The notes: generated from the letters alone by a model not told the origin. DNA of 63,728 bases, filler included, from Pseudomonadota bacterium (GCA_040387495.1; 5 parts of 4 records of this genome joined end to end with filler, not necessarily neighbours in it), one strand, 5' to 3'; positions 11,933 to 54,000 are shown, numbered from the whole stretch's first letter. A program made the numbers and translations.

Positions 11933-12032
11933 NNNNNNNNNNNNNNNNNNNNNNNNNNNNNNNNNNNNNNNNNNNNTTAATTAATTAANNNNNNNNNNNN
12001 NNNNNNNNNNNNNNNNNNNNNNNNNNNNNNNN
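11933..12032. other. Artificial contig linker
   Basis: N runs around TTAATTAATTAA, 100 bp. Confidence 0.99.
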
Positions 12033-17029: not shown

Positions 17030-17129
17030 NNNNNNNNNNNNNNNNNNNNNNNNNNNNNNNNNNNNNNNNNNNNTTAATTAATTAANNNNNNNNNNNNNNN
17101 NNNNNNNNNNNNNNNNNNNNNNNNNNNNN
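17030..17129. other. Artificial contig linker
   Basis: N runs around TTAATTAATTAA. Confidence 0.99.
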
Positions 17130-18507: not shown

Positions 18508-19737
18508 CTAATCTAACTTTTCTTTTTTATTTTTATCTTTGTTCTTATTTTTGTCTTTCACATGATCTACGGAAATCTCACATAACTTCTTTAATACGCG
18601 TGCAAGTCTTCCAATTTCATTGTCATTTTTAGTGAACTCCTCAAATGTTTCATTTTTGCCATTTAAATTATTTTGGATTATAGTAACAATAGTGTGAAGA
18701 GGAATCATTAAGAATACATTGTAAGTAATTACAGAAATAACGAAAACGAGTAAAATCTGCATGAGCTTGATAATAACATTTGTAGCAAATATAGATTGAT
18801 ACTGCGCATTAAGTTTATCAAAACTTTTCGAGACAACAATTGTACCAATTTTTGCACCACTAAAATCAAAAAGTGGTTCTATGGCAATCCCTTCTTCTTT
18901 ACCGTTAACAATAGGAAATACCGTATAGAATTCTGTTCCCTTACTCAGATATGTAGAAGTCATCAATGATATTATTTTTTCTTTATCTGTAGAATCTAAA
19001 TACCTAAAATTACCAATTGTATTAAGGACTTCCAGCTGTTCGTCCGTAATTTTCTTCTCATTCTTTTCCTGTTCATTTGAAATTTTTGTACAAACTCGCT
19101 TGTATGTATTTTTGTTAACAAAAATGCTAATATCTGCACCTGTAATTTTCTTTGTTTTGTTTATCAAACTTTTAAATGAAAATACAAATTCTAAACTGCC
19201 AATATGTTCTTTTTCATAAAATACGGGGACCACGCCACGAAGACCAAGCCCAGCTCTCCCTAACTCAAGGCCCTTTTGTGGACTTTTTAAGTTATTCGTA
19301 CTCACAACAGTCTGTCTAAAATCACTTAAATCTTCTCCATAATCACCATCTTTATGAAGTTTAAGAAAAGTTGATGCAGGCGCTTTATGGAATTGCATTT
19401 CACTCAGATCATATTTTTCATTTTGCTCAATAAACATTGGCCTTAATTGAGCCCATAACCACGTGCAATCTTCATCTTTAAATGCTTTTCCAATACTAGG
19501 CATAGTCGCAAGCATATCAGCGCGCGATTCAGCTTTTCCTGTTATTTTAAGAAAGTCCGATGCAATTTGTTCTGAGATAGCTTTTAACTCACTCGTCTTT
19601 GCACGTTCCAAAGCACGCTCATGATCTGAATAAACAGCAATAAGCGTAAGCACTAAAGAAATGCACGAAACCATAGGGATAAGAAGAGGAATCTTAAATC
19701 TCAAACTTCCTTTTTTAAATTTATTTACATAAACCAT
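18508..19737 (-). CDS. Membrane sensor: TM-Cache(dCache_3-like)-TM-HAMP, no output domain
   Basis: QFHKAPASTFLKLHK..YGEDLSDFR..GLELGRAGLGLRGVVP..IGSLEF; HAMP-like NEIGRLARVL; short Lys-rich tail. Confidence 0.8.
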   Translation of the reverse strand: MVYVNKFKKGSLRFKIPLLIPMVSCISLVLTLIAVYSDHERALERAKTSELKAISEQIASDFLKITGKAESRADMLATMPSIGKAFKDEDCTWLWAQLRPMFIEQNEKYDLSEMQFHKAPASTFLKLHKDGDYGEDLSDFRQTVVSTNNLKSPQKGLELGRAGLGLRGVVPVFYEKEHIGSLEFVFSFKSLINKTKKITGADISIFVNKNTYKRVCTKISNEQEKNEKKITDEQLEVLNTIGNFRYLDSTDKEKIISLMTSTYLSKGTEFYTVFPIVNGKEEGIAIEPLFDFSGAKIGTIVVSKSFDKLNAQYQSIFATNVIIKLMQILLVFVISVITYNVFLMIPLHTIVTIIQNNLNGKNETFEEFTKNDNEIGRLARVLKKLCEISVDHVKDKNKNKDKNKKEKLD

Positions 19738-19804
19738 AAAACAACCCTCAACTTTGAGATGCAAGATAAACATCTGATTCAAATAGTTAATAATATAACG
19801 TAAA

Positions 19805-20869
19805 TTACTTCATGGCATCAATAATGTAACCAGCCAATATAAAAATTGCAAATAGTGGCAATGCCCATTGACAATAACTAACAAGCGTTCTTAATATACT
19901 GTTTGAATAAACGGTAGTTACAATGTATTTCTCTAAAATACAGACGAAAAATAATATGGTTAATTGAAACATATAACCAATGCCAAATACTTTTAGAACC
20001 AAGCTGTCAACAACAGCGCTATCGGAATATTTTAAAGTGATCGTAAATTGCAATGTTATCAGTGCTAAAAGGGACGAAAGCACCACACTTATTTTTGCCA
20101 TAATATTTATATTGCTGACCCATAATAAAATAAGTGGAAATAGCATAATCATAAAAAATGGAAAGAAAATCATTGGCACATAAGTTGCCGAAGCACGTTC
20201 CGCCTTAACCATGAAACGTAAATTCTCATATAAATATCCATTCCAGCCTCGTAAAATTTTCATCTTTGTATGAAATCCATGTAAATACCATAAAGGAGTA
20301 CTTGCGCCAATGGTTATCCCTGAATCATATTCTTCTTCAACTTCATACACGATACGCATATCAGCCATTGTATTTTTTGTAGACTCAACATCAAGAACTA
20401 AAAGCTGCTCATCAAAAGGAAAAGCCTTTGTATCCAGCGGAGTTCCAAATTCACCTGTTATTGTTAAAATATATTCAACCTTGCCATCACTATAAATAAT
20501 GAGACCATGATGTTGTTTTTGCGGTGTTTTTAGTATATTTTTGATTTTTAAGTTTGGGTTCCAAATACTTTCTAATTTTTTGACTGCTTCTACGTCATCC
20601 AACATTATACGACTTACACCTTTTTCCTTTTTATCAAAGGCAAGATTTGGATCTTTCCATACTGTTTTCAACTGAATTATTCCGGAAAATCCCTCCAAAA
20701 GATTGCTAATGTCATCTAGTTTCAAAACCAAAAGCTCAACCTTTACAGGCACAGGAAATATAAAATCCTCCTTATTTTCAGCTTCCGATGAAAACAGTGC
20801 TGTCTGCGTTAGTAGAAACACTAAAAATAGAAAATATTTTTTAAAGCAAAACATCATTTTTAAACCCAT
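19805..20869 (-). CDS. Prokaryotic pentameric ligand-gated ion channel (GLIC/ELIC-like Pro-loop receptor)
   Basis: Signal peptide, WKDPNL, IWNPNL, DGKVEY, Pro-loop FPFDEQ, pre-M1 Arg (ER), four C-terminal TMs. Confidence 0.85.
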   Translation of the reverse strand: MGLKMMFCFKKYFLFLVFLLTQTALFSSEAENKEDFIFPVPVKVELLVLKLDDISNLLEGFSGIIQLKTVWKDPNLAFDKKEKGVSRIMLDDVEAVKKLESIWNPNLKIKNILKTPQKQHHGLIIYSDGKVEYILTITGEFGTPLDTKAFPFDEQLLVLDVESTKNTMADMRIVYEVEEEYDSGITIGASTPLWYLHGFHTKMKILRGWNGYLYENLRFMVKAERASATYVPMIFFPFFMIMLFPLILLWVSNINIMAKISVVLSSLLALITLQFTITLKYSDSAVVDSLVLKVFGIGYMFQLTILFFVCILEKYIVTTVYSNSILRTLVSYCQWALPLFAIFILAGYIIDAMK

Positions 20870-22106
20870 ATTCCATTACATCATCTTCAGAATTCTCAGA
20901 TGTATGCTCGTTTTCCATAGCATTATTTTCAGTGATAAAATTTTCATTAGATGTAAGCGTTGGATGCAACTGCTTTATCAGATGTGAAATAGTATCAAGT
21001 TGATTATGATGGTGAGCAAAATCTGACAAGGACACATTTTTACCACGCACCATCGCATTGCATCGCTTAGTCAATTCACTTAATGGATAAAGTGTTATAC
21101 CGTTAAACACGACGAAAACAATGCTGGCAAGAACAATAATTCGAACAATAGCATTAACGATTTCCCATAATATTTTTTTATAGAATTTTATATGAAGATC
21201 TTCAAATGATTTTACAACTGCAATCTTACCAATAGTCTCCCCATGAAAATCATTTAGTGGATAAAATATAATTCCAAAATGCTGTTTATTTATTACAGGA
21301 AATATAATTTCTGCGAAAGAGCTTTTCTTAAGATTTTCATTGTTAATGAATAAAAATATTTTTTCTTTATTACTTGATTCAGTATGAGTATAATCACCTA
21401 TAATATTTGATTTTGCTTCTGCTGAATTAGTGTTATCTGATTTAACGCTTATAAGTGTGCAAACCTCTTCAAAAAGCTTTGTTTCAATAAACACACCTAT
21501 CTCAGAGGATGTTAGGGATTTGTATTTGTTGATTATATTTTTCATTGTAAAGACAAATTCCATACTCCCGATGTGCCCCTCATCATCAGAAATTGGCACA
21601 ACACCACGAATTCCAAGACCAGCCCGACCAAGTTCAAGACCTTGTTGTGAACGTTTTTCCTCGTTGGCTAGAACAACACTTTTGCGAAACCCACTTAAGT
21701 CTTCACCATAACCACCTTCTTTATGAATTCTCAGAAATGTCTTAGCTGGAGCTTTATGAAATTGAAGTTCACTCATAAAATATTTTTGCTTTTGTTTCGC
21801 AAACATTACTTTCATTTGATCAATGAGCCATTCCCGATCTTCTTTTCGAAAGGCTTCAACAATAGAAGGAATAGTCGCGAACATAACCGCACGTGACGCA
21901 GCAAGTGCAGCCGTTTCATCAACATCTGTTTGTATTTTTTCTATGATATCTTTTAATGCTATACGTTTTGTTTCTACAAGTTCTTTTTCTTGCACACTGT
22001 ATGACAAAAAAACAGCACTTGCTATTGATAACATAAGGCATAAAATTACCACCAATGGTGCTCTTACAGATAGTTGAGATTTTTTAAGTCTTGCAAAAAT
22101 ATGCAT
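20841..22106 (-). CDS. Second membrane sensor: TM-Cache(dCache_3-like)-TM-HAMP, no output domain
   Basis: QFHKAPAKTFLRIHK..YGEDLSGFR..GLELGRAGLGIRGVVP..IGSMEF; paralog of 18508; acidic tail; start 22106 or 22151. Confidence 0.8.
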   Translation of the reverse strand: MHIFARLKKSQLSVRAPLVVILCLMLSIASAVFLSYSVQEKELVETKRIALKDIIEKIQTDVDETAALAASRAVMFATIPSIVEAFRKEDREWLIDQMKVMFAKQKQKYFMSELQFHKAPAKTFLRIHKEGGYGEDLSGFRKSVVLANEEKRSQQGLELGRAGLGIRGVVPISDDEGHIGSMEFVFTMKNIINKYKSLTSSEIGVFIETKLFEEVCTLISVKSDNTNSAEAKSNIIGDYTHTESSNKEKIFLFINNENLKKSSFAEIIFPVINKQHFGIIFYPLNDFHGETIGKIAVVKSFEDLHIKFYKKILWEIVNAIVRIIVLASIVFVVFNGITLYPLSELTKRCNAMVRGKNVSLSDFAHHHNQLDTISHLIKQLHPTLTSNENFITENNAMENEHTSENSEDDVMEYGFKNDVLL

Positions 22107-22188
22107 ATATTTTTTAAATTCATTAGCGACTCTAAGTAAGATGTTAAGCAAAAAAATATTAACAAACTATGAATGAGGAAAAAAAAGT

Positions 22189-24158: not shown

Positions 24159-25286
24159 TTGCAAATGCCCTTTTATCGTTTTTGGGCACTCAACGAACAC
24201 AAACAAACCATCACCGGTATGATGATAGGTAATTCTATAAACGATATTGACGAAACTTTACGGCAGTTCAACCAGCATCCGCTTAAAATTCGAGGGATTT
24301 TCCATTTATCACTCACACGTTTTAATGACATTGACCGGTTTGAACTCTGCCATGCCCTTACTGAAATGCTAAAAGCAGGTGTTACACTCATTGATGCCTT
24401 AAATGCACTTTCTACGGATCAACGTGACCTTAAACGTCGCATTCTTTGTTCTACTTTTGCACGAAAAATACATTTCGGCTGTGGGATGCATGCTTTCAAC
24501 CAAAATGAGTTTTTTGATGAAACTGGGTTTCAAACACTTTTGCGTGCAGAACAAACCGGAAACCTAACCGCTATTTTTTCAACACTCGCCGAACATTATC
24601 AAGCACGTCATACCTATCGTACAGAATTACATCGTATCATTCGTTATCCAATATTTTTAGCAACGATGCTTTGTGTACTTATTGGCATACTTTCAACACT
24701 TGTTTTACCAAACATAGAGACACTTACACCACCATCATCTCGTGGATTCGCCTATACAAGTTTTCGTTGGTTTTCATCTCATTTAGATCAAGTCGTAGGA
24801 TTTTTAGCAGGGTTAATACTCATATTATTTCTCAGCAAAGCACTTTTATATCGTATTCCGATTGTAGCGAGAGCATATATGGGGCAATTCTGGCATGATC
24901 TTTCCTTTTGCTTGCACCACGACATCCCTTTAATTGAAGCATTAGGTCTTATCGAAAAAGGCTTGCCTACTTTTTTTCAAGAACATACCACACTCACACG
25001 AGAAAAACTTCTCAACGGAATCAGTCTAAGTGACTCCTTTCATAGTCTTCCTGCTCAATCACAAACGCGTTCATCACTCATTATGCTCGCTCAAAAAACA
25101 GGAGATGTACCTGGAATAATCCATCATTTAGCAAAAATTGAGAATAATTATATAAATAATTTAATTAAAAAACTATTATCCTGGACTCAGCCCCTCTTAA
25201 TACTTATCATGGGGTTAGTAGTGTTATGGATACTCCAAGCAACGATTGTACCCCTTTATGATAGTTTGGCAGAATTTAAAGATTAA
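24159..25286 (+). CDS. Type II secretion/type IV pilus platform protein (GspF/PilC family)
   Basis: MLKAGVTLIDAL, AEQTGNL, RYPIFL, QKTGD, QPLLILIMG..IVPLYD; duplicated domain. Confidence 0.85.
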   Translation: MQMPFYRFWALNEHKQTITGMMIGNSINDIDETLRQFNQHPLKIRGIFHLSLTRFNDIDRFELCHALTEMLKAGVTLIDALNALSTDQRDLKRRILCSTFARKIHFGCGMHAFNQNEFFDETGFQTLLRAEQTGNLTAIFSTLAEHYQARHTYRTELHRIIRYPIFLATMLCVLIGILSTLVLPNIETLTPPSSRGFAYTSFRWFSSHLDQVVGFLAGLILILFLSKALLYRIPIVARAYMGQFWHDLSFCLHHDIPLIEALGLIEKGLPTFFQEHTTLTREKLLNGISLSDSFHSLPAQSQTRSSLIMLAQKTGDVPGIIHHLAKIENNYINNLIKKLLSWTQPLLILIMGLVVLWILQATIVPLYDSLAEFKD

Positions 25287-26820
25287 TTCGTCCCCACAGC
25301 TTCTTGAGCTCATGCAAGAAACATGTAAAAAGGTAATCACACCTTTTAATCAGGTATGTAAATACGCGCAAGAAGTTCTTGCACATACACCGCCAGAATT
25401 TATAAAAATTCATATTCATCCCAATCACATCACTTTGTTTCACATCAAAAATCGACATATTCTTGATCGTTTTGAAGTGGAAACGTCTCAGCTAAAAACA
25501 GGTGCATTAGCCTTTTTTCTAGCTCCTCGCTCTGCCTTACCTCTACAAATTCTTATTGATAATGAAGATGTAAATTATCGGTTGATATCCTTACGTCAGA
25601 CAAAATGGTGGAATCGTCATGGTCTTTTTAATCAAATTAAAATCGCAGAATTTGACAAAACTGATTGGGTATATCATGAACATGTACCATGCTCTGCTGA
25701 TTCTCACAGATATGTCTTTATTGCCTTCAAACCATCCACCACGCTATTAGAGACATTCATGTACCTTAATAATTTTAAAAACCCCGTTGCAAAAATTCAA
25801 TTAACTTCTGTTCAGCAAACTGTGGCAGCCATCGATCGAATCAAAAAATATGAGCCAATGCGTAGCTTTTGCCCATGGTCATTGTTTATTCGAAGAATAT
25901 CAGATACCGACTGGCTTTTGTCAGCACAACAATATGGTGCAATTGTCCTTAGCAGACGTGGAAAATTCGCTGCTAATAATTCGGAAGAATCCACGATAGA
26001 AGCTGAAATCGCAACAACCCTTCGCTATTTACAACGAAATGGCTATGAAGAAGGCGAAAATCTTACGCTGATTACTGCAGGATTTTCAGATGAATTCAAT
26101 GGGCATTCATTTGACTCCGTCTCTATAACAGATGTTATTCCAGTTCCTGTACGTGATATCGACACACGTATTCAGTTAGATTCACATTTTAGTGATCTTT
26201 CAGAAAATGGTTTTTGGATCTTAAATCATGTAAGAACTATTTTAAGAAAACCAAATTCATTTTATACGAAAGGTTTTAGTCCTCGTCTCATGTTAAGTCA
26301 ACGTCTCGCCTATTGGATCCCATATATCTGTAAGCGCGTTATTATACCGTTAAGCATTGCATGTTTTTTTACCCTCATTACATACGCATCAAAAACACAT
26401 ACTCTTAAGGAAAACATTAAGGCGACTCTTTTTAAAAAAGAAGCTATGTTTTCCACAACAGGAGATGAAAAACGTCGACAAGCTGCTGCAAATTTTAATG
26501 TATTCAAAGATCTCACTGGTGAGAATCCATTAATATTCTTAAAAACATTATCCATATCACTCACAAAAGAAGCATATATCACGCAGTTTTCTTGGGACGC
26601 AAAGAAAACGAATAATCATTGGTTATCTTCTTTTGAGGCGATAATTACTCTGCCTGATCATTCATTACTAACGAAGCGAAAAACAAAGAACAACAAGAAC
26701 TTAGCTACTTATCAACAAAAAGTCCAAAGGAAATTACAAAAAAGTTATCCAAACGCAAAAATCATTTGGTTGCCAATACATGGAAAGTCGGCATATACAC
26801 TGGGGGTCTCATGGGATTAA
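25246..26820 (+). CDS. Hypothetical protein, possibly PilM/PilN or GspL-like
   Basis: Overlaps gspF/pilC; LSRR..EIATTLRYLQR; single TM near residue 370. Confidence 0.5.
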   Translation: MYPFMIVWQNLKINSSPQLLELMQETCKKVITPFNQVCKYAQEVLAHTPPEFIKIHIHPNHITLFHIKNRHILDRFEVETSQLKTGALAFFLAPRSALPLQILIDNEDVNYRLISLRQTKWWNRHGLFNQIKIAEFDKTDWVYHEHVPCSADSHRYVFIAFKPSTTLLETFMYLNNFKNPVAKIQLTSVQQTVAAIDRIKKYEPMRSFCPWSLFIRRISDTDWLLSAQQYGAIVLSRRGKFAANNSEESTIEAEIATTLRYLQRNGYEEGENLTLITAGFSDEFNGHSFDSVSITDVIPVPVRDIDTRIQLDSHFSDLSENGFWILNHVRTILRKPNSFYTKGFSPRLMLSQRLAYWIPYICKRVIIPLSIACFFTLITYASKTHTLKENIKATLFKKEAMFSTTGDEKRRQAAANFNVFKDLTGENPLIFLKTLSISLTKEAYITQFSWDAKKTNNHWLSSFEAIITLPDHSLLTKRKTKNNKNLATYQQKVQRKLQKSYPNAKIIWLPIHGKSAYTLGVSWD

Positions 26821-27467
26821 AAACTCAACTAGATAACTTTCGTAAAAATACATTCAATTTTGAGACATGGCATATTCCCTGGCTTAGTCAAAAAACAGGT
26901 GGGATTCTTGTGTTAACAAGCGTCCTGTTTTTAACCAGCATCATCGGTGTTATGACAACCTATACAACCTACACAATTAAACAAGAAAACCTAAGAGATG
27001 AAAAAAAAGACCTTGAATCTATTAAAAATCTTTTTTTTCTTGAAGAACAATACCAGTCCGCAGTTGATAATAAAACCAGCTCTCACTTAAGCGCACATTA
27101 TTTAAAATTCAATCGGCCAACATCTTTTGCTGCGATGAAAGCTTATCTTAAAAAATGGCAATCAACGCTCCGCATAAAAACACTCAATGTTACAATGGAG
27201 TCTGCAAAACCGTATACGCGTGGCAAAGGTATTATGGTTGTCCCCATCACGCTCAAAGCACACGTATTAAATGACAAAATGCTTTACCAATTATTGGAAA
27301 AATTACAAAATGATGCGCCTGGCCTCATTGTTCTTAAGCATATCGATTTAAAGCGTGTAGTGGGATCATCTCTGCAAACAATTAATCAGTTATTATCTGG
27401 CAAAAAAAACATCCTTGTTGAAGGAACAATTGTGTGTGACTGGTTTTTCATTGGTGAAGATAAATAA
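26811..27467 (+). CDS. Hypothetical bitopic protein, possibly PilO/GspM-like
   Basis: N-terminal TM, coiled coil, C-terminal LYQLLEKLQNDAPGLIVLKHIDLKR; operon position. Confidence 0.5.
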   Translation: MGLKTQLDNFRKNTFNFETWHIPWLSQKTGGILVLTSVLFLTSIIGVMTTYTTYTIKQENLRDEKKDLESIKNLFFLEEQYQSAVDNKTSSHLSAHYLKFNRPTSFAAMKAYLKKWQSTLRIKTLNVTMESAKPYTRGKGIMVVPITLKAHVLNDKMLYQLLEKLQNDAPGLIVLKHIDLKRVVGSSLQTINQLLSGKKNILVEGTIVCDWFFIGEDK

Positions 27468-44049: not shown

Positions 44050-44149
44050 NNNNNNNNNNNNNNNNNNNNNNNNNNNNNNNNNNNNNNNNNNNNTTAATTA
44101 ATTAANNNNNNNNNNNNNNNNNNNNNNNNNNNNNNNNNNNNNNNNNNNN
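44050..44149. other. Artificial contig linker
   Basis: N runs around TTAATTAATTAA. Confidence 0.99.
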
Positions 44150-53900: not shown

Positions 53901-54000
53901 NNNNNNNNNNNNNNNNNNNNNNNNNNNNNNNNNNNNNNNNNNNNTTAATTAATTAANNNNNNNNNNNNNNNNNNNNNNNNNNNNNNNNNNNNNNNNNNNN
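53901..54000. other. Artificial contig linker
   Basis: N runs around TTAATTAATTAA. Confidence 0.99.

Follow-up and report, generated by a model that had tools for sequence, protein, structure and literature searches.

Organization of the locus

The locus was analyzed in a window of 63,728 nucleotides (the whole stretch of DNA, filler included, from the Pseudomonadota genome GCA_040387495.1). It consists of three ORFs, all on the minus strand, in the order Cache A, ligand-gated ion channel (pLGIC) and Cache B. The Cache A gene (20841..22151) has a longest ORF of 436 aa, with a probable start at ATG 22106 (421 aa). The pLGIC gene (19805..20869) codes for 354 aa, with a predicted signal peptide, extracellular ligand-binding domain and four TM helices. 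The Cache B gene (18508..19782) has a longest ORF of 424 aa and a probable start at ATG 19737 (409 aa), which is preceded by GAGG. Both Cache starts were placed 15 codons inside the longest ORF because of the orthologues and of the database gene calls (421 aa for Cache A, P0025; 409 aa for Cache B, P0008).

At its stop end Cache A shares 29 nt with the start of the pLGIC gene (the last codons of the Cache A tail), and the channel gene is separated from Cache B by 22 nt (longest ORF) or 67 nt (if Cache B is read from ATG 19737). A preliminary description made from the DNA alone had placed the channel between two Cache genes of the same strand, and this layout is confirmed; the motifs quoted there (WKDP, IWNP, FPFD, MAKISVVLSSLL, ENEHTSENSEDD and KDKNKNKDKNKKEK) are all found in the translations. 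A promoter and terminator scan, with counts close to the shuffled expectation, showed no terminator-like site between the three genes. The locus is flanked by genes for a PEP-utilising enzyme (PtsP-like) and a DUF374 protein, and by a T2SS-F-like gene.

The channel

The product of the middle gene matches Neur_chan_LBD (Pfam PF02931, E 2.4e-15, 57 bits; cut-off 26); the genome has no second match of this kind. Pfam Neur_chan_memb gives no match to the protein at E≤0.1, and NCBIfam TIGR00860 scores 84.8 bits, under its cut-off of 280. The extracellular domain (20186..20779, residues ~31–228) carries WKDP, IWNP and the FPFD Pro-loop, and residues W71, D73, W103, P105 and F150-P151-F152-D153 are invariant in three channel alignments (A1, A2, A4). 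Four hydrophobic segments follow, which form the putative transmembrane domain M1–M4 (19808..20185, residues ~229–354), with a very short M3–M4 loop. By its ligand-binding domain, Pro-loop and four TM segments, the protein is predicted to be a member of the pLGIC superfamily. The same superfamily comprises GLIC, GlyR alpha-3 and a GABA-A beta subunit, which phmmer aligns to the window channel through M3 at E ~1e-12 (the alignments end in the channel at residue 319 for GLIC and 307 for GlyR alpha-3). The similarity to these characterized channels is distant, with a best E of ~5e-13.

The pore-lining M2 helix (20042..20098, residues 258–276) was located with alignments to GlyR alpha-3 and within the clade; the former places Ala258 at -1', Lys259 at 0' and Leu268 at 9'. 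Compared with GLIC and the other characterized pLGICs, a difference is that position -1' of the pore is occupied by Ala and not by Glu. Lacking the cation-channel Glu, the pore may therefore be anion-permeable or weakly selective. The preliminary description had taken the Ala at -1' and the Leu at 9' as a hint of anion selectivity. Both residues are found, but the hint is weak, as position -2' is Met instead of the Pro of anionic channels and the -1' residue varies inside the Cache-linked clade (Glu in loci L020 and L036).

The Cache proteins

Both outer genes match Pfam dCache_3: Cache A with E 8e-25 (88 bits, cut-off 25.7; 21222..21920, residues 78–310 of the 436-aa ORF) and Cache B with E 6e-29 (102 bits; 18961..19536, residues 83–274 of the 424-aa ORF). 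The two proteins are paralogous, with 38% identity over 395 aa (E 5e-93), and have a common architecture of TM1, a double-Cache periplasmic domain, TM2, a HAMP-like segment and a charged tail. TM2 was assigned in Cache A (21087..21167, residues ~329–355) from the sequence and homology to the modeled Cache B, and in Cache B (18703..18780, residues ~335–360) from homology and the AlphaFold2 model. In this model (pLDDT 91.7, pTM 0.81) two PAS-like modules (~residues 60–320) stand between two long helices, and Foldseek relates it to the dCache ligand-binding domains Mlp24, PctA, TlpA, Tlp3, 3lid and DctB; a PDB sequence search with Cache B gave no match at E≤1. The C-terminal tail of Cache A (20844..20957) is acidic/polar, with a net charge of -9, while that of Cache B (18511..18576) is short and Lys-rich, with a net charge of +3. 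In the triad clade these charges range from -3 to -9 for A (6/6 rows) and from +1 to +3 for B (4/4 rows).

No MCPsignal, kinase or cyclase domain was detected in the locus proteins (Pfam, E≤0.1), and Cache A and Cache B are indeed without a recognizable output domain, as had been described. From TM1 through HAMP they are homologous to dCache_3-HAMP chemotaxis proteins (e.g. P0028, P0053, P0070; 26–32% identity), with which they share the distal-module motif QFH..PA..F.R.H. Unlike these chemoreceptors, both window proteins stop ~20–40 residues past the HAMP-like segment, without MCPsignal. Their closest relatives are all 357–421 aa long, with chemoreceptors and kinases appearing only at 26–32% identity, and ~35 full-length short forms are present among the best 150 representatives (50% identity clustering).

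The HAMP-like segment of Cache A (20958..21086), which begins with the conserved Pro356, is degenerate and lies under Pfam detection; that of Cache B (18577..18702) extends from Pro361 to ~residue 402. The earlier assignment of HAMP domains can be kept only in this qualified form. Pfam HAMP does not match A, B or their isolated C-terminal pieces even at E≤10, and a genome-wide HAMP search gave no match at either gene. On the other side, P0028, a homologous chemoreceptor, has a Pfam-verified HAMP (residues 311–362, E 1.8e-11) to which Cache B residues ~352–402 align, Pfam detects HAMP in 11 of 47 short family members, a conserved Pro stands directly after TM2, and the Cache B model continues past TM2 as helix, connector and helix.

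The HAMP-like cytoplasmic part is the least conserved and fastest-evolving region (C-terminal omega 0.18–0.56), and the Cache protein of locus L037 stops 7 residues past TM2, so that the HAMP-like part is absent. Among the short forms the cytoplasmic part varies or can be dispensed with, and its low conservation and its loss in one lineage point to coupling in the periplasm or the membrane. A cytoplasmic role is conceivable in some lineages, since 11 of the 47 keep a good HAMP and the tails keep their charge character. By entropy, TM2 is relatively better kept in short than in long forms, a weak difference between sets unmatched for divergence.

Conservation of the gene pair

A short dCache_3 gene lies directly upstream of the channel in every close or moderately distant relative with a readable neighborhood, and it usually overlaps the channel start. 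The arrangement recurs in 13 loci besides the window. Including the window, the survey comprises seven Cache-pLGIC-Cache triads (the window, G003, L003, L004, L005 (=G027), L006 (=G025) and L025), six two-gene loci with the Cache gene directly upstream (G029/L015, G094/L020, L029, L032, G490/L036 and G657/L037), and one fusion on a single contig. In the two-gene loci the partner carries dCache_3 alone by Pfam (6/6), and stop and start overlap or are at most 2 nt apart in all five with an unambiguous channel start; the sixth, L036, has an overlap of its longest channel ORF with the Cache gene. The fusion, P0075 (790 aa), joins dCache_3, a HAMP-like segment, a hydrophobic segment and a Neur_chan_LBD channel in one frame. 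It is a single sequence on one 5.9-kb contig with unfused nearest relatives (P0182, P0183), and may for these reasons be an assembly or frameshift artefact; a search with P0075 residues 300–790 found no further Cache-channel fusions.

In a 30-row pLGIC tree the 11 Cache-linked channels form one clade (ultrafast bootstrap 100, SH-aLRT 99). This branch is present in 200 of 200 bootstrap trees, with one change of state, and the other 19 channels have no Cache-family neighbor within the available sequence. A 29-row Cache tree separates 21 short or linked forms from eight long chemoreceptor and GAF forms (96/90) and agrees with the channel tree in its order of branching. Cache A and Cache B are sisters in it (100/98), with L015 as the outgroup (97/94). 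The sensor gene was duplicated in the window lineage, and the copies A and B therefore flank the channel.

Among 62 genomes of the order, all five with a strong channel match have one or more adjoining Cache genes, and the readable contexts showed no intact short Cache gene without a channel beside it. The adjacency is maintained at channel identities of 22–31%. The channel is the sole conserved neighbor, and the flanks contain no kinase or other cytoplasmic signaling gene. The linked lineages are few (~four deep branches and the P0075 lineage), were found with the window channel's own profile, and come from genomes of one phylum. Chance can be set aside, because the domain matches exceed curated cut-offs and other genomes show the arrangement again. 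Contrary to the lack of linkage that the preliminary description had named as a refutation, the Cache-channel linkage is conserved across deep divergence, with the triad in seven loci, and the pair is an ancient, co-evolving and tightly coupled gene unit.

All three genes are kept by purifying selection. The omega values (NG86) are 0.03–0.08 for the channel, 0.13–0.27 for Cache A and 0.09–0.22 for Cache B, and are rough because dS is saturated (>1).

The genome (1.66 Mb, 99.9% complete) encodes flagellin. MCPsignal and the CheA dimerisation domain have no match genome-wide, and thus no canonical chemotaxis pathway is apparent to take the signal. A single CheW-like match has an in-frame stop inside.

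Relation to known systems

Tasneem, Iyer, Jakobsson and Aravind (2004; PMC549065) described pLGICs fused to Cache or MCP-N domains, predicted an operon of a pLGIC and a stand-alone Cache protein in Rhodopseudomonas, and proposed cooperation of the two by analogy with the fused forms. Going by this published description, the operon resembles the window locus, in which the channel gene and separate Cache-domain genes likewise adjoin on one strand; it was described from an alphaproteobacterium. The term "new sensory channel system" used in the preliminary description is therefore overstated. In the available portion of the 2004 paper the operon is reported from one bacterium, and nothing is said of TM helices, HAMP or an absent output. 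In comparison with the Rhodopseudomonas operon, the pair described here is characteristic of an entire channel clade, whose tree agrees with that of the partner, and the window sensor is duplicated, flanks the channel and has oppositely charged tails. The novelty of the window locus is a sensor duplication with tails of opposite charge, in a genome with flagellin but without a match to MCPsignal or CheA dimerisation.

A second parallel is the output-less Cache_heme-HAMP (CHH) receptor, which binds an operon-encoded Ser/Thr kinase (bioRxiv 10.64898/2026.05.25.727664). Like Cache A and Cache B, it combines a Cache domain in the periplasm with a TM region, followed by a HAMP (in Cache A and Cache B a HAMP-like segment), and has no enzymatic domain of its own; its output is supplied by the neighboring gene product. 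It differs in its CXXCH heme motif, which is found in neither window Cache sequence, and in its partner, a cytoplasmic kinase touching HAMP, whereas the window partner gene codes for a membrane channel and HAMP is either degenerate or missing; the genes flanking the window locus include no Ser/Thr kinase. No experimental study of a Cache-pLGIC pair was found in the open-access PMC/bioRxiv literature, and a search by term in Jaiteh et al. 2016 (PMC4795631) returned nothing relevant.

Proposed function and alternatives

The reading that we favor, though with no better than even confidence, is a dedicated sensor-channel module in which the Cache protein senses and the ion flux of the channel is the output. 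The Cache protein would ancestrally have been a homodimer and would in the window probably pair as A/B or as A/A and B/B, binding a periplasmic small molecule in the membrane-distal Cache pocket. It would act on a homopentameric channel by periplasmic or intramembrane contact, either of the Cache TM helices with the outer helices of the channel or of the Cache domain with the extracellular domain. The output of sensing would therefore be ion flux and a change of membrane potential, not phosphorylation, through a pore that may conduct anions or have weak selectivity. The degenerate HAMP and the opposite tail charges would be secondary and may aid A-B pairing.

Two properties of the proteins speak against such a module. 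The channel has its own complete extracellular domain, including the core residues of the family, and could therefore be gated by its own ligand unaided; and a dimeric Cache protein does not match the symmetry of a pentameric channel. A complex prediction with Cache A 8–342, Cache B 10–347 and channel 31–354 weighs on neither side of the question of binding: it scored 0.00 in two runs, with controls not folded and with one channel subunit and a truncated Cache pair as input, unlike the real pentamer.

The same linkage would also be expected if the Cache protein were a helper without conformational signaling, which either concentrates ligand for the channel's own site or serves assembly, stability or localisation; we consider this rather unlikely. 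The full extracellular domain of the channel fits such a role, as does the HAMP-less L037 form, according to which periplasmic and membrane parts suffice, and "preliminary concentration or sensing" is among the proposals in the accessible text of Tasneem et al. 2004 (PMC549065). However, a membrane-tethered dimeric sensor would be an odd ligand shuttle, and the two TM helices, with a HAMP-like segment in most forms and the Pro after TM2, make up a signaling apparatus beyond a mere anchor.

It is less probable still that the HAMP-like segment and the charged tails signal to a cytoplasmic partner, with the channel merely co-regulated or acting downstream through ion flux. The CHH receptor, which binds its operon partner through HAMP (10.64898/2026.05.25.727664), is a precedent, and the Pfam-detectable HAMP in 11/47 short forms and the tail charge conserved in the triad clade point the same way. 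Against this stand the channel as the only conserved neighbor, with no kinase or cytoplasmic signaling gene in the flanks, and the fast evolution of the HAMP-like part and its absence from L037. Moreover, the channel offers HAMP almost no cytoplasmic mass, because its M3–M4 loop is so short.

That the Cache genes are truncated chemoreceptor leftovers, accidentally beside the channel in a reduced, chemotaxis-less genome, is rejected as highly improbable: the nearest long relatives are dCache_3-HAMP chemoreceptors, MCPsignal has 0 matches in the genome and the relative G026 retains just a 67-aa fragment interrupted by stops, but the Cache genes are intact at all readable loci and under purifying selection (omega 0.09–0.27), hence not decaying, the short forms group as a separate clade, with unreduced 4–5-Mb genomes among them, ~35 of the best 150 representatives at 50% identity are full-length short forms, the closest relatives are themselves short (357–421 aa), contrary to the truncation that the preliminary description had allowed for, and the adjacency persists at 22–31% channel identity.

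A more specific version of the sensor-channel module, to which we give little credence at present, is that an A/B heterodimer, as an auxiliary subunit, gates by physical contact a pLGIC with an anion-permeable or weakly selective pore, which could constitute a chemo-electrical pathway. If true, this would be the first case outside animals of a pLGIC regulated by an auxiliary subunit, and the module could replace classical chemotaxis signaling by linking a periplasmic cue directly to the membrane potential.

To our knowledge, the role and native gating of bacterial pLGICs are open questions; GLIC and ELIC serve as structural models, their biology being largely unknown, and we know of no counterpart in GLIC of the partnering with a sensor gene. 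A sensor that has been passed on together with one channel clade over deep divergences is a concrete handle on the gating of bacterial pLGICs. The duplicated form is a ready-made system for testing homodimeric against heterodimeric sensors, and the HAMP-less L037 form gives a first idea of the parts of the sensor that count. Should the sensor indeed gate the channel, control of the superfamily by accessory subunits predates animals, and bacteria can give a chemoreceptor-type sensor an electrical output.

Locus organization

The window contains paired runs of N at 11933-12032, 17030-17129, 44050-44149 and 53901-54000, which mark joins of separate contigs; synteny across them is therefore not real. 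All three genes under study lie on one contig, C12, which corresponds to window positions 17130-44049 only. The genome itself comprises 1.66 Mb in 20 contigs and is 99.9% complete.

ORF calling places Cache A at 20841-22151, the pLGIC homologue at 19805-20869 and Cache B at 18508-19782, all on the minus strand (total span 18508-22151). The Cache A stop codon lies within the channel ORF, 29 nt in. Orthologues and database gene calls indicate that the true starts are probably the ATG codons at 22106 for Cache A (421 aa) and at 19737 for Cache B (409 aa). The Pfam scan assigned dCache_3 to Cache A (E 8e-25) and Cache B (E 6e-29) and Neur_chan_LBD to the gene between them (E 2.4e-15). Each match exceeds its curated cut-off, and an output domain was found in none of the three proteins. 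The two Cache proteins share 38% identity over 395 aligned residues. ORFs and domains thus confirm the preliminary description of a pLGIC between two output-less Cache genes, and every motif and tail quoted there was found in the translations.

The three genes (18508-22106) have a GC content of 32-33% (GC3 0.23-0.29), compared with a genome mean of 39.4% and 41-43% for the flanking genes, and fall within the lowest 5% or so of the 1.2-kb windows of the genome. Together with the patchy distribution of the module, the low GC hints at lateral spread; the composition of membrane proteins may also contribute to it. On the same contig, 24159-27467 holds a T2SS-F (PilC/GspF-like) gene and, after it, an overlapping pair of ORFs (524 and 233 aa). 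These two ORFs lack a Pfam match and may encode divergent secretion or pilus components.

The Cache fold and the HAMP-like segment

The AlphaFold2 model of Cache B (47-row alignment, pLDDT 91.7, pTM 0.81) has every element expected of the architecture: it begins with a long helix, continues with two PAS-like modules and a long membrane-crossing helix, and closes with a connector and a last helix. In Foldseek its neighbours are ligand-binding domains of the double-Cache type, from chemoreceptors and kinases. A HAMP domain had been assigned to both Cache proteins in the preliminary description. The Pfam HAMP profile does not match the isolated C-termini of Cache A and Cache B even at E<=10, and a search of the whole genome gave matches in two other genes, none in Cache A or B. 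However, Cache B residues ~352-402 align with the Pfam-verified HAMP of a homologous dCache_3 chemoreceptor (P0028), the profile does match 11 of 47 short family members, and a proline behind TM2 is near-invariant across the Cache family. Given these observations and the architecture of the model, HAMP is a reasonable label for a segment that is probably there by homology, in degenerate form.

Maintenance of the short Cache genes

Among 5.8 billion proteins, the nearest relatives of Cache B are short throughout: the complete ones have 393-421 aa, the shorter rows are mostly fragments from short contigs, and chemoreceptors and one kinase are confined to 26-36% identity. Searched exhaustively, 1.84 billion representatives yielded 4274 matches at E<=1e-3 (50 at E<=1e-30), with ~35 full-length short forms (357-418 aa) among the best 150; the long relatives comprise chemoreceptors and proteins with GAF or PAS domains. 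Pairwise dN/dS (ω) against four orthologous loci is 0.13-0.27 for Cache A, 0.09-0.22 for Cache B and 0.03-0.08 for the channel, values that are rough since dS is saturated. With the nearest relatives all short, rather than full-length MCPs or kinases, and ω low, the reading of the Cache genes as chemoreceptor remnants is rejected.

Conserved linkage of Cache and channel genes

The Cache-pLGIC-Cache triad is kept in close relatives, namely at all 4 loci of public relatives, in genome G003 and at metagenome locus L025. More distant channels (22-31% identity where measured) occur as a gene pair, the short dCache_3 gene lying immediately upstream, in G029 (L015), G094 (L020, another family in the class sample), G657 (L037), G490 (L036, another class) and at two metagenome loci (L029, L032); in all six loci the partner carries dCache_3 and no other Pfam domain. 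Few genomes in any sample have a channel match (8 of 62 in the order, 6 of 401 in the class sample, 16 of 401 in the phylum sample and 9 of 56 in the class of G490), and the top-scoring channels of each sample are the Cache-linked ones. No Cache-family neighbour was found, in the available flanking sequence, beside the still more distant channels (L016, L017, L021-24, L026, L027, L031, L033 and L038-L047, with L036 and L037 excepted), which include three fusions to periplasmic binding proteins; L028, L030, L034 and L035 are too short for their neighbourhoods to be judged. The Cache-channel adjacency on which the preliminary description had staked its proposal is therefore present in close and distant relatives, and the linkage is conserved and specific to one channel clade, within a survey that covered one phylum.

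The unlinked metagenome loci L026 and L027 form a separate, GC-rich pLGIC group. Their divergent upstream gene resembles, by eye, an AraC-type regulator, which places this part of the channel family in another regulatory setting.

Viewed from the sensor side, the Cache family (E<=1e-10) is present in 7 of the 62 genomes of the order. Five of the seven also carry a strong channel match right beside the Cache genes, and in one (G004) the Cache copy lies at the edge of a 3-kb contig, where the context is unreadable. The seventh (G026, 72% complete) retains only a 67-aa Cache fragment (L049, G026:C18:8395-8658), corresponding to the TM2 and HAMP-like end of the gene; the match around it is interrupted by stop codons, and no channel gene lies close by. 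As two other genomes of this genus carry the full triad, L049 is an example of module loss.

Phylogeny and duplication of the sensor

A careful maximum-likelihood tree of the channels was built from 30 rows, leaving out fragments (L028, L030, L032, L034, L035, L045), duplicate records, P0006, P0007, P0182 and P0183. The 11 Cache-linked channels fall on one side of a single branch (support 100/99, 200 of 200 bootstrap trees). Since relatives do not count independently, the linked set represents some four deep lineages plus that of the fusion protein P0075. In the Cache tree (29 rows) a branch with support 96/90 sets 21 short or linked forms apart from the 8 long ones, and the branching order is identical to that of the channel tree. 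Cache A and Cache B are sisters (100/98) with the single Cache of G029 as the outgroup (97/94), so the duplication arose within the small-genome lineage. A 745-aa singleton from a single contig, P0031, contains two successive TM-dCache_3-TM modules in one polypeptide, a covalent 'double sensor', and its two halves both cluster with the Cache portion of P0075 (98/98, Cache tree). It is an independent duplication, and with it a two-sensor arrangement seems recurrent.

Within the triad clade, all 6 Cache A rows end in an acidic tail (-3 to -9) and all 4 Cache B rows in a basic one (+1 to +3); outside it the tails are short and of inconsistent charge. The opposite charges would fit pairing of A with B, and the two proteins may form a heterodimer. 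As a side observation, the last 82 Cache A residues are identical at L003:185-1450 and L004:4770-6029, although the two proteins share only 78% and 63% identity with Cache A of the window. The shared C-terminus reflects either recombination or chimeric assembly; judging by their record titles, both bins stem from one data set.

Possible site of coupling

The Cache protein of G657 stops seven residues past TM2, and the channel start overlaps its stop; lacking HAMP, it indicates that this segment is not needed in that lineage. In the ESM Atlas, an 80-member cluster of 337-aa forms has its alignment confined to residues 6-349 (a lead only). The C-terminal part of the Cache proteins evolves fastest (ω 0.18-0.56, highest entropy), and the very short M3-M4 loop of the channel offers little cytoplasmic surface. 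Taken together, these features favour a putative contact in the periplasm or the membrane. In P0075 (790 aa) a single frame runs from Cache through a HAMP-like and then a hydrophobic segment into the channel, with consistent topology. It is a lone sequence from one contig, the proteins nearest to it are not fused, and it lends weak support to a Cache-channel coupling.

The channel and its genomic context

The genome contains a single pLGIC gene, so the channel is presumably a homopentamer. Alignment of M2 with that of GlyR alpha-3 places Met-Ala-Lys at -2', -1' and 0' and Leu at 9'. With regard to the anion selectivity hinted at earlier, the Glu that cation channels typically carry at -1' is lacking, as is the Pro found at -2' in anion channels, and -1' varies in the linked clade (Glu in L020 and L036, 'PTR' in P0182, 'GAR' in P0183). 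Anion permeability is possible on these residues, and the channel may be anion-selective.

The genome encodes a flagellin (E 1.4e-21). In the genome searches MCPsignal and the CheA dimerisation domain had no matches, the sole CheR match was below the cut-off, and the one weak CheW match carries an in-frame TAA; the stretches concerned are C18:67463-67870 and C3:61097-61501. In view of the missing chemotaxis-domain matches, no classical chemotaxis pathway is apparent into which the Cache sensors could feed, and the organism looks like a flagellated bacterium without one.

A 288-aa gene model from a eukaryote protein set (P0026) combines dCache_3 with an enoyl-ACP reductase domain and, along one third of its sequence, is 58% identical to Cache B. 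At L005 and L006, a 269-aa ORF adjoining Cache B resembles, by eye only, such a reductase. P0026 probably derives from bacterial DNA of this lineage within a protist data set, and as such hints at a protist-associated lifestyle.

Relation to known systems

Tasneem, Iyer, Jakobsson and Aravind (2004, PMC549065) report bacterial pLGICs fused to MCP-N and Cache domains, pLGIC operons with PBP-II genes and, in Rhodopseudomonas, a predicted pLGIC operon with a stand-alone Cache gene, and propose cooperation between the proteins and a chemoreceptor role for the channels. The general sensor-channel idea is thus already in print. As shown in a 2026 preprint (10.64898/2026.05.25.727664), an output-less Cache_heme-HAMP receptor acts via a kinase that is encoded in its operon and binds its HAMP; it offers a precedent for output in trans, but differs from Cache-pLGIC in partner and contact. 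No experimental work on a Cache-pLGIC pair was found in the literature searched.

The Cache and pLGIC genes constitute a conserved, selected sensor-channel module, in which the Cache proteins may gate the channel directly. The preliminary description of a candidate new sensory channel system holds in a narrower sense: the kind itself was predicted in 2004, and what is new here is the duplicated sensors flanking the channel.
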